Shown piece after piece: positions 40,201 through 43,200 of a DNA stretch of 64,000 nt. How positions within the stretch are numbered: the stretch's first letter is position 1; the number at the start of each line of letters is the position of its first letter. The stretch is taken from assembly GCF_058153355.1 (NCBI RefSeq), contig NZ_CM177019.1. The stretch is one strand, 5' to 3'. The position numbers were made by a program.

Positions 40201-43200
40201 GAGATTGCCACGGAACAGGTCGGGCAGTTGATATAGCAAAAACAGAGCAGTGGGGGAGAGTTGTTGAGAAAGAGTGCGGAAGATGTAAAGGCGTCGGTTA
40301 TTCAAGGATGCCAGCAAGCGCAGCATATCGCGCTGTAACGATGCTAATCCCAAACCTTACTCAACCCACCTGGTCACGCACTGTTAAGCCGCTGTATGAC
40401 GCCCTGGTGGTGCAATGCCACAAAGAAGAGTCAATCGCAGACAACATTTTGAATGCGGTCACACGTTAGCAGCATGATTGCCACGGATGGCAACATATTA
40501 ACGGCATGATATTGACTTTTTGAATAAAGTTGGGTAAATTTGACTCAAGAATGGCAGATTTATATCCGTTCACATTCTTTCGGTTTTTTACCCACCTCAT
40601 CTTTAAGTTCTAAGCGCACTGACATGCGCATCATAAACTCGAGAGCACATAGGAATAGAGCCTGCATAACGGTTTCGGGATTTTTTATTTGGGTCAGTCG
40701 TATAAAGGTCATTACGGAAGGCTGTTAACCTTCTTATCGTGGTTCGAGTCCACGCTGTCCCGCCAAACATGCTGGTTTAGCTCCAATGGTAGAGCAGTCG
40801 CCTTGTAAGCGAATGGGTAGCGGTTCAAGTCCGTTAACCAGCACCATAACTGAGCCGTAGCCACTGGCTATCCTGAATTCATCAGTGACAGTTACGCTGC
40901 GGCCTTCTTTTTCCCTTCCCAATATAAGAACTACGCCATCCGTTATTTGCGGAGGTGAGGCTATGAAATCCATGGACAAAATATCAACGGGCATTGCCTA
41001 CGGCACCTCCGCAGGCAGTGCCGGCTACTGGTTTTTACAGTGGCTTGATCAGGTCAGTCCATCACAGTGGGCTGCGATTGGTGTGCTGGGAAGTCTGGCG
41101 CTGGGCTTTCTGACTTATCTGACGAATCTGTATTTCAAAATAAGAGAAGATAAGCGTAAGGCTGCGAGAGGTGAATAATGTCGCCATCATTACGCAAGGC
41201 TGTTGCAGTTGCTATTGGTGGCGGGGCTGTTGCTATAGCATCTGTGTTAATCACTGGCCCAGGTGGTAACGATGGTCTGGAAGGTGTCAGCTACATACCA
41301 TACAAAGATATCATTGGTGTATGGACTGTATGTCACGGACACACCGGAAAAGACATCATGCCTGGTAAAACGTATACCGAAGCAGAATGCAAAGCTCTCC
41401 TGAATAAAGACCTTGCCACTGTCGCCAGACAAATTAACCCGTACATCAAAGTCGATATACCGGAAACAACGCGCGGCGCTCTTTACTCGTTCGTTTACAA
41501 CGTGGGCGCTGGCAATTTCAGAACATCGACGCTTCTTCGCAAAATAAACCAGGGCGATATCAAAGGCGCATGTGACCAGCTACGTCGCTGGACATATGCT
41601 GGCGGTAAGCAATGGAAAGGGCTGATGACCCGTCGTGAGATTGAGCGTGAAGTCTGTTTGTGGGGGCAGCAATGAGCAGAGTCACCGCGATTATCTCCGC
41701 TCTGGTTATCTGCATCATCGTCTGCCTGTCATGGGCTGTTAATCATTACCGTGATAACGCCATTACCTACAAAGAGCAGCGCGACAAAAACGCAAGAGAA
41801 CTGAAGCTGGCGAACGCAACCATTACTGACATGCAGCAGCGCCAGCGTGCTGCTGATGCACTCGATGCTAAATACACGAAGGAGTTAGCTGATGCGAAAG
41901 CTGAAAATGATGCTCTTCGGCGCAAGCTTGATAATGGTGGTCGGGTGCTCGTCAAAGGAAAATGCCCTGTGCCATCCTCAGCCGAAACCTCCAGCGCCTC
42001 CGGCATGGGCAATGATGCCACCGTCGAACTCTCTCCAGTTGCTGGACGAAACGTTCTCGGTATCCGGGACGGAATCATCAGCGACCAGACAGCATTGAGA
42101 ATGCTTCAGGAGTACATCAGGACTCAGTGCCTGAAATAAATTTTTTTTGCAAATCACAAAGTCCATTTAATGAGCCTCGCACTTGCGGGGCTTTTATATG
42201 TCCGCAGTAAACCGCGCATCGCAGCGCGTATAAACCCCGAGTCTTTCAGAAAGCTGAGCCTGAGAATTGCCGTATATGGTGGCGACCATCTCGGGGACGG
42301 CTTTTCTGTGCGAACAGGCTCATCTTTCTAAAAGGTAAAGACGCCATGAACAAATCATTAACCGTTCTTCCTTCTGGCAAATACCCGACCATGAGCAGTC
42401 TTGAGATGGTGGATTACATTAATGCTGATCGGGAATCAAAAGCAGAGGCGGAGGGGCTTGTGTTCCCCTGTAAGAAATATCGCAAACTCGAACACCGCAG
42501 TTTCATGAAGAAAGTACCCAGGGGCCTCGGGGATGCAGCTGCAAAATTTTTTGCAACTGATACCTATATCAACGGAACAGGTGGTGTTGTGGAGAGGGAT
42601 ATTTGCAATTTTCCCAAGCGTGAAGCTTGCCTCATGGCAATGAGCTACAGCTATGAGCTTCAGGCGCAGGTGTATGACCACATGACGGAGCTTGAGGGCG
42701 GGAAGGACATTAACCTCCTCGATTTCTCTGGCCTGACCGATATGGCAATCAGCGAAATGCAAAACCGTGTCGCGGCTGCTGAGAAGTTCTCATTTGAAAT
42801 GCACGGTCAAGCAGGTAGCGCTCTCATGACTCGTCGGAAGAAAGAGAAGAAGGCCATTAAAAAGGCTGAGCAGCTTGTGAAGGATCTGATTCAGTTCAAG
42901 CTATGTGACATGGGGGATTTCCCTGATGGTAAACCAGCATGACTCCGATTGATTTCATACATAAAAATGTAACAACCGAGTTAATAAAGCTTGGGTACGA
43001 CCAGAACGCGGCTATGACTGGCGCTGACATGGCGGTGGAGCATTACCGCCGTTGTTCACAAGCCAGCAGAAAAGGCCGAGTTTTCGATGACTGCCTGTAC
43101 ATTGCAAAACAGTGGGCAGGTAGGCAGAAAAGGGAAAAAATGACAACCTGAGAGCTACTTTCACAACGGCTCTTCATTACAAAGCCCATCTACTGGTGGG

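Follow-up and report, generated by a model that had tools for sequence, protein, structure and literature searches.

The window analyzed here is a 64,000-nucleotide stretch (one strand) of contig NZ_CM177019.1 from NCBI RefSeq assembly GCF_058153355.1, and our subject is a pair of small genes in its lambdoid late region, together with the RNA that precedes them. The original prediction had placed two open reading frames (ORFs) of 198 and 70 amino acids between the spanin and terminase genes, and the ORF listing returns both on the + strand, each with an ATG start, at the same coordinates and with the same flanks (Table 1). Their proposed translational coupling is borne out by an ATGA at 42939-42942, in which the start codon of the second gene overlaps the stop codon of the first, and by an overlap of exactly 4 nt in 46 of the 55 related pairs that we found in IMG/VR loci. 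As proteins, both are conserved far beyond what chance would give. The main new result lies immediately upstream of the pair, outside the coordinates of the original prediction: a structured, pseudoknotted leader RNA. The genes themselves appear to be a rha allele with a recurrent, previously undescribed partner.

The ~175 bp from Rz to the ATG of the 198-residue gene are conserved among phages that carry different cargo, and the version in Erwinia phage Midgardsormr38 shows compensatory changes. This segment contains a strong terminator-like hairpin, conserved in our alignments A4 and A5, whose counterpart the epsilon34 and phi80 records label a Rho-independent terminator, followed by a second hairpin, H2, for which the variants in A5 keep the pairing as judged by eye rather than by a formal count (TGTGCA/TGCACA, TGCTC/GAGCA, GCGCA/TGCGC). 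The leader proper comes next. Leaders from 40 loci were aligned; RNAalifold predicted no structure on the MAFFT alignment, in which the helices were mis-registered, but a covariance model (R1), built from seven of the sequences with a hand-drawn nested structure, resolved this. In the window, R1 gives 121 bits for the + strand versus 30 bits for the − strand, and it finds the leader upstream of nearly every Rha homolog, again with + scores far above − scores.

Covariation, assessed on 43 distinct leader sequences, supports a conserved structure for this RNA. In the nested helices, 92.1% of cells are standard pairs, versus 70.5% in shuffles and 36-50% in slid controls, figures for an alignment that was fitted to the model, which favors structure; both sides change in 24 of the 26 pairs, there are 218 compensatory cells, and the G-U pairs fit the + strand only. 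The pseudoknot helix P4, whose 3′ strand occupies the loop that joins P5 to P3, provides an independent test because it is absent from the covariance model: at least 6 contiguous base pairs form in 41 of the 43 distinct sequences, versus 18% of cross-pairings, and they do so in at least a dozen sequence versions (for example CCCCGAG, CACAGAG, CATCGAA, CTCAGAA, CCAAGAG and CACCAAG). In 31 of the 43 leaders, a linker downstream of the first P4 strand can form at least 5 bp with the Shine–Dalgarno (SD) region, with co-varying forms CCUUAU/AUAAGG, CCUUU/AAAGG and GCCUA/UAGGU, and in the minimum free energy fold of the window leader (−40.1 kcal/mol, z −2.7) a GUCUUU:AAAGAC stem closes over the spacer between the SD and the ATG. 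A 53-aa ORF at 42170-42331 that overlaps both the terminator and the RNA was rejected as a gene: its variation follows base pairing and includes indels rather than following codons.

Table 1. Coordinates of the paired genes, their RNA leader and the neighboring late-region features in the window
Feature	Position	Strand	Description or basis
Q antiterminator	39813-40469		
tRNA-Asn (GTT) and tRNA-Thr (TGT)	40691-40846		Between Q and holin gene
Holin gene			Between tRNAs and endolysin
Endolysin	41178-41675		
Rz	41660-42139		PHROG 13, E 4e-75
Rz1	41892-42098		
Intrinsic-terminator-like hairpin and T-rich tract	42172..42200 (hairpin 42172-42193)	+	GAGCCTCGC-ACTT-GCGGGGCTT; just 3′ of Rz; terminator scan
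Hairpin H2	42213..42228	+	CGCGC-ATCGCA-GCGCG; between terminator and pseudoknot domain; read from sequence
Pseudoknotted leader RNA, ~100 nt	42235..42329	+	Covariance model R1
Leader P4	5′ strand 42235-41; 3′ strand 42290-96		
Leader anti-SD linker	42242-47 (GUCUUU at 42241-46)		GUCUUU
Leader P1ext	42248-53 with 42324-29		
Leader P1	42256-62 with 42315-21		
Leader P2	42263-66 with 42304-07		
Leader P3	42269-72 with 42298-301		
Leader P5 hairpin	42276-89		
Leader conserved bulge	42308-14		GUGCGAA
Ribosome-binding region and ATG of 198-aa gene	42331..42348	+	AAAGGT, then AAAGAC; complementary to linker GUCUUU
rha-like gene, 198 aa	42346..42942	+	ORF, profile searches, AF2 model
Small partner gene, 70 aa	42939..43151	+	PHROG 4439, unknown function; three-helix bundle, basic tail
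Junction to small terminase gene	43152..43274	+	Hairpin AAGCCCA-N8-TGGGCTT at ~43184-43205, without T tract
Small terminase	43275-43829		Terminase_2, E 1e-37
539-aa ORF, large-terminase position	43832-45451		No Pfam match at E ≤ 1
Portal	45442-46992		

The leader occurs in 146 phage records, 73 of them Stx2a phages, and at ≥90% identity in 486 of 5,426 complete E. coli genomes; none of the records that the search listed annotates it. Among pseudoknotted riboswitches, the SAM-II and preQ1 classes are familiar examples of SD-sequestering leaders. The window leader resembles such RNAs in its compact fold, a long-range pseudoknot abutting the ribosome-binding site, an anti-SD segment and conserved unpaired junction nucleotides, but it precedes phage regulator and nuclease genes rather than metabolic genes, and neither positions 40400-43400 of the window nor six diverse leader-bearing loci gave a match in Rfam 15 (4,227 families, E ≤ 1). 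A literature search of incomplete coverage found no published description, and the leader appears to be an uncatalogued structured RNA of wide distribution. Elsewhere in one IMG/VR locus (L025:512-577), ~2.3 kb upstream of the leader, the Rfam family int-alpA scores 45.4 bits (gathering threshold 35.8).

In phi80 (NC_021190.1; 2001-2104 of our excerpt L090) the leader lies directly upstream of rha. Because the annotated rha start (2068) falls inside the leader and the position equivalent to the window ATG (~2104) lies 12 codons downstream in the same frame, the deposited start is probably too far upstream. A KilA-N gene in another locus (L097) has its start at 1870, likewise inside a leader match (1801-1904). 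Several records probably begin rha or kilA-N within the RNA element, with which the spurious 53-aa ORF overlaps as well.

The genes found behind the leader are not all of one kind: in addition to Rha and KilA-N genes, it precedes genes for T5orf172/MUG113 (GIY-YIG-like) and HNH_3+AP2 proteins. Diverged second copies of the leader are also present in two prophages, at L004:707-812 and L014:609-712 (34 and 48 bits, respectively); the former lies between Q and an HNH_3+AP2 endonuclease gene, and no ORF of at least 60 aa follows the latter. These nuclease-type genes, the L004 copy at its other site, and the conserved flanks shared by phages with different cargo would suit a selfish cassette, that is, a leader plus gene that moves between phages like a free-standing homing-endonuclease gene and plays no part in the phage life cycle. 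We nevertheless strongly doubt it: the Pfam and NCBIfam searches found no nuclease domain in either the Rha-like or the 70-aa protein, both proteins are under clear purifying selection across genera, and the conservation of a regulatory RNA points to controlled use over passive carriage.

The Rz-terminase slot holds different genes in different phages. The order in phi80 is that of the window (Rz/Rz1, terminator, leader and then rha, after the lysis genes and before the packaging region or genome end), and phi80 shares both the leader and a collinear Rha but lacks the coupled 70-aa gene. In the same slot, Sf101 and Stx2a phages encode Rha+ORF11CD3 proteins, epsilon34 a T5orf172/MUG113 protein, and another phage a KilA-N+ORF11CD3 protein; Sf101, the Stx2a phages and epsilon34 share the organization seen in phi80. 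This is where phi80, P22-like and Stx phages canonically carry rha and, given that Rha, T5orf172 and KilA-N genes occupy the same place, the slot is therefore a hot spot for genes of what has been termed the "Bro network" (PMC10111431). The window itself is ~99.6% identical to prophages of a few E. coli strains, in which RefSeq names the 198-aa gene "hypothetical protein" and leaves the 70-aa gene uncalled. The exact pair is carried by 16 of the 5,426 complete genomes, and a related pair stands behind Rz/Rz1 in Midgardsormr38, with 76% (198-aa) and 51% (70-aa) amino acid identity. Because the pair is so rare, and because no PADLOC, Pfam or NCBIfam match points to a structural function, we regard it as accessory, in agreement with the variable accessory slot of the original prediction; the core packaging or structural assignment that the latter had named as contrary to it was found for neither gene.

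For the larger protein, the original prediction had allowed a weak Rha-like resemblance at the N terminus only, which understates the relationship. Our family alignment (A1), compared by hhalign with four canonical Rha proteins, is collinear with them over residues 8-169 (E 5e-5), apart from ~21 residues inserted where the first helix of the N-terminal domain lies, and its match to phi80 Rha (E 5e-6, probability 86%) includes a C-terminal motif, GSxLMxxRKKEK, which reads HGQAGSALMTRRKKEKK in the window protein and KGTIGSRLMNERKKEKR in phi80 Rha. There are 1,830 relatives at E ≤ 1e-3, and the close ones, from many Enterobacterales, are ~195-200 aa long and carry the NCBI name "Rha family transcriptional regulator". 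The matches of 22 of 36 family members to Phage_pRha (PF09669), and those of the window protein to PHROG 63 and PHROG 4936 given below, also count in favor of Rha. At the level of profiles, homology to canonical Rha of the phi80 and P22 types is moderately supported (pairwise, the P22-type Rha of Sf101 shows no usable similarity to the window protein, BLASTP E 1.3). Since the protein is collinear with canonical Rha, shares the phi80 motif and has relatives that NCBI names Rha, we identify its gene from these comparisons as a divergent but full-length allele of a genetically known gene.

The AlphaFold model of this protein (pLDDT 74) shows a helix-helix-beta hairpin-helix-helix arrangement in the N-terminal domain and a C-terminal helical hairpin, a topology that fits the Rha assignment. 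These correspond to a predicted Rha-type winged-helix-like domain (~residues 15-116) and to a hairpin (128-187) that bears the GSxLMxxRKKEK motif and resembles ORF11CD3 at the level of that motif, but does not match the ORF11CD3 Pfam model. The sole match in a profile search of the PDB with this family, the DksA coiled coil, was not significant (E 0.26). Genes of the Bro network are among the commonest unexplained genes in temperate phages; Iyer and colleagues reportedly described in 2002 how phage proteins of this kind swap domains (Bro-N, KilA-N, Rha, ANT/KilAC, ORF6N, P22_AR, ORF11CD3, T5orf172). Like them, and like the others encoded behind the same leader, the window protein joins a predicted N-terminal DNA-binding module to a short C-terminal helical one, and we would expect it to act as a DNA-binding regulator of this network.

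The smaller protein belongs to PHROG 4439, of unknown function (E 1e-34). An exhaustive profile search yielded 101 cluster representatives at 50% identity, nearly all of 50-115 aa; four apparent domain fusions (P0214, P0242, P0165 and P0204) have an internal Met at the start of the domain and are probably over-extended ORF calls. A 198-aa homolog is encoded in 80 IMG/VR loci, of which 77 are not truncated after the gene, and in 55 of these 77 a homolog of the 70-aa protein follows directly, down to ~55% Rha identity. In three of the loci without it, small helical ORFs of 51-64 aa are seen instead: one overlaps the rha stop (L054:3585-3740), and the others come after an intervening ORF of 147-153 aa (L080:3933-4127 and L081:3910-4098); they may be analogous partners of unrelated sequence. 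Distant relatives of the 70-aa protein that are unlinked to Rha occur in five phage or prophage contexts, after cro and a gene in the cII position (one of which passes the Phage_CII cutoff) and before the replication genes. That members of one small-protein family accompany regulator genes in early as well as late operons suggests a partner role.

This immunity-region placement of the distant relatives bears on another way to read the pair, as an antirepressor module in which either protein would inactivate a CI-type repressor of its own or a co-resident prophage, on the model of P22 Ant or the TF-smORF modules. The 198-aa protein matches PHROG 63, "anti-repressor Ant" (E 7e-11), and PHROG 4936, "transcriptional regulator", at ~E 1e-10, and many of its tblastn relatives are annotated as antirepressors, although such annotations are transferred names and not tests. 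In linear plasmid-like phages, the TF of such a TF-smORF module activates its smORF, whose small product inactivates cI (Silpe et al. 2023, PMC10432266). These modules, like the window pair, combine a DNA-binding protein with a ~60-70-aa protein that has no annotated domain, in a temperate phage; however, their genes are transcribed divergently from sites near repA-telN or par, and their sequences are unrelated to those of the window pair, whose genes overlap, share one orientation and belong to the late operon. Expression from a position after the lysis genes would also be too late for the pair to induce the phage that carries it, and we consider an antirepressor function unlikely.

The 70-aa protein is modeled with confidence as a bundle of three helices plus a basic tail, and its best fold matches are sigma-factor region 2 domains, whose three-helix fold it shares. 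Stand-alone sigma-2-like proteins exist, an example being RsoA, which in B. subtilis is part of the two-subunit sigma O-RsoA. The 70-aa protein might mimic sigma region 2, bind the beta-prime clamp helices and, alone or with Rha, redirect or inhibit host transcription. We rate this as decidedly unlikely. The 70-aa family has no sequence match to Sigma70_r2 or extracytoplasmic function (ECF) sigma models, an hhalign comparison with E. coli RpoE gave E 0.31, and no sequence relationship to sigma region 2 or to stand-alone proteins such as T4 gp55 and RsoA is detectable. Two other candidate identities were discarded. The match of the 70-aa protein to RMF (E 0.027, 15 bits versus a cutoff of 27.9) recurs in only 2 of 60 family members and is attributed to chance; apart from this sub-threshold hit, Pfam and NCBIfam gave no assignment. 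Synthetic PPR repeats in the PDB profile search (E 0.003, with all i-Evalues >100) were judged a helical-repeat artifact.

Both genes are co-oriented with the late operon. In a scan limited to the sigma-70 consensus, 41900-43400 contained no promoter-like site (0 versus 1.4 expected), no conserved −35/−10 pair was seen by eye between the terminator and the leader, and the + strand terminator scan found terminator-like sites only upstream of the genes. Because there is no such promoter and a terminator lies upstream, the pair would depend on the late operon: its transcripts most likely originate solely from late RNA polymerase, antiterminated by Q, that reads through the 42172-42200 terminator during lytic growth.

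The same observations bear on the lysogenic-conversion half of the original prediction, which had offered accessory or lysogenic-conversion genes and of which the accessory half stands. As morons, the two genes would be expressed by the prophage and would change the phenotype of the host or protect the lysogen. The variability of the slot and the rarity of the pair are what one would expect of such cargo, and one phage record (H18) annotates an "anti-CRISPR protein" near the slot. This reading nevertheless seems to us very improbable, given that the genes have neither a consensus promoter nor a clear terminator of their own, that they run with the late operon behind a ribosome-binding site abutting a structured leader, that neither protein has a PADLOC-DB match at E ≤ 1, and that each product resembles a soluble helical or DNA-binding protein.

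The explanation that we favor, and hold as a whole to be somewhat more probable than its negation, is that the locus is a late-operon cassette, accessory and not structural, placed where lambdoid phages canonically carry rha and composed of a rha allele and its small partner under the control of the leader. The leader probably gates translation of the cargo gene: as read from the sequences, it would limit translation of the first gene, and through coupling that of the second, by sequestering the ribosome-binding region in a basal helix with the anti-SD linker. P4 and the SD pairing should compete, because the linker is also the strand that bridges P4 and the foot of the main stack, and mutual exclusion of P4 and the SD:anti-SD helix (P0, 42241-46 with 42331-41) is likely; it would make an on/off switch. 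The product of the second gene, translated by coupling, would act with or modulate that of the first.

The role of the first gene is probably that of rha in phi80 and P22, a dispensable gene that harms the phage when the host lacks IHF. Although rha has been known genetically for some thirty years, its mechanism and regulation are not understood; it was reportedly defined by Henthorn and Friedman in 1995 through a product that inhibits phage growth in E. coli IHF mutants. The phi80 record carries the note "DNA synthesis inhibition in IHF- hosts" for rha. If the gene is harmful in such hosts, its dose must stay low, and tight control by a leader would fit. The leader may account for the toxicity that rha-type genes show once deregulated, for which IHF mutants are an example, and its presence before such genes in phi80, P22-like and Stx phages and in ~9% of complete E. 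coli genomes gives a handle on how their expression is limited.

Several points weigh against this explanation. The 198-aa protein alone has no Pfam (E ≤ 1) or NCBIfam match; 22 of 36 aligned relatives match Phage_pRha (PF09669), with a best E of 6.7e-06; for a Rha+ANT protein elsewhere in the window, a similar value (7.5e-06) was equivalent to 26.9 bits, under the curated cutoff of 29.9 bits. Of the profile and structure-based searches that the original prediction had suggested, profile comparison led to Rha and structure prediction to the three-helix fold, whereas fold searches with the 198-aa model returned nothing informative. Coupling is not obligatory: the partner is missing beside 22 of the 77 Rha homologs, and its family is also found where there is no Rha. 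The promoter scan covered consensus sites only. Finally, the SD:anti-SD helix is short, with limited covariation (a leader's own strands pair over at least 5 bp in 72% of cases, versus 50% for cross-pairings), and its mutual exclusion with P4 rests on geometry, not data.

A bolder extension, which we put forward as speculation with a small chance of being right, is that the leader represents a new, switchable class of cis-regulatory RNA, in which pseudoknot formation competes with SD sequestration in response to some signal of the cell or of the infection state (for instance temperature, a host protein, a metabolite or a second messenger), and which gates a whole family of Bro-network and nuclease cargo, including rha of phi80 and Stx phages. 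The 70-aa protein would in addition mimic sigma region 2 and thereby subject RNA polymerase to the DNA-binding protein encoded upstream of it, Rha here and a CII-like protein elsewhere.

Downstream of the pair, the distal junction is common to phages with other cargo: the second pieces of the megablast alignments reach window positions 43261-43283 (query 1162-1184), and P22-like phages share the junction sequence, where it precedes a DUF2560 gene. In L002, a near-identical prophage, RefSeq names the 539-aa ORF in the large-terminase position "hypothetical protein", and four tRNAs (Ile, Arg, Thr and Val) take the place of the two in the window. The nin region (37532-39054) encodes an ORF6N+P22_AR_C protein (241 aa as listed) and a Rha-like+ANT/KilAC protein (242 aa), the sub-threshold case mentioned above, so that with the 198-aa gene the prophage has at least three Bro-network genes.

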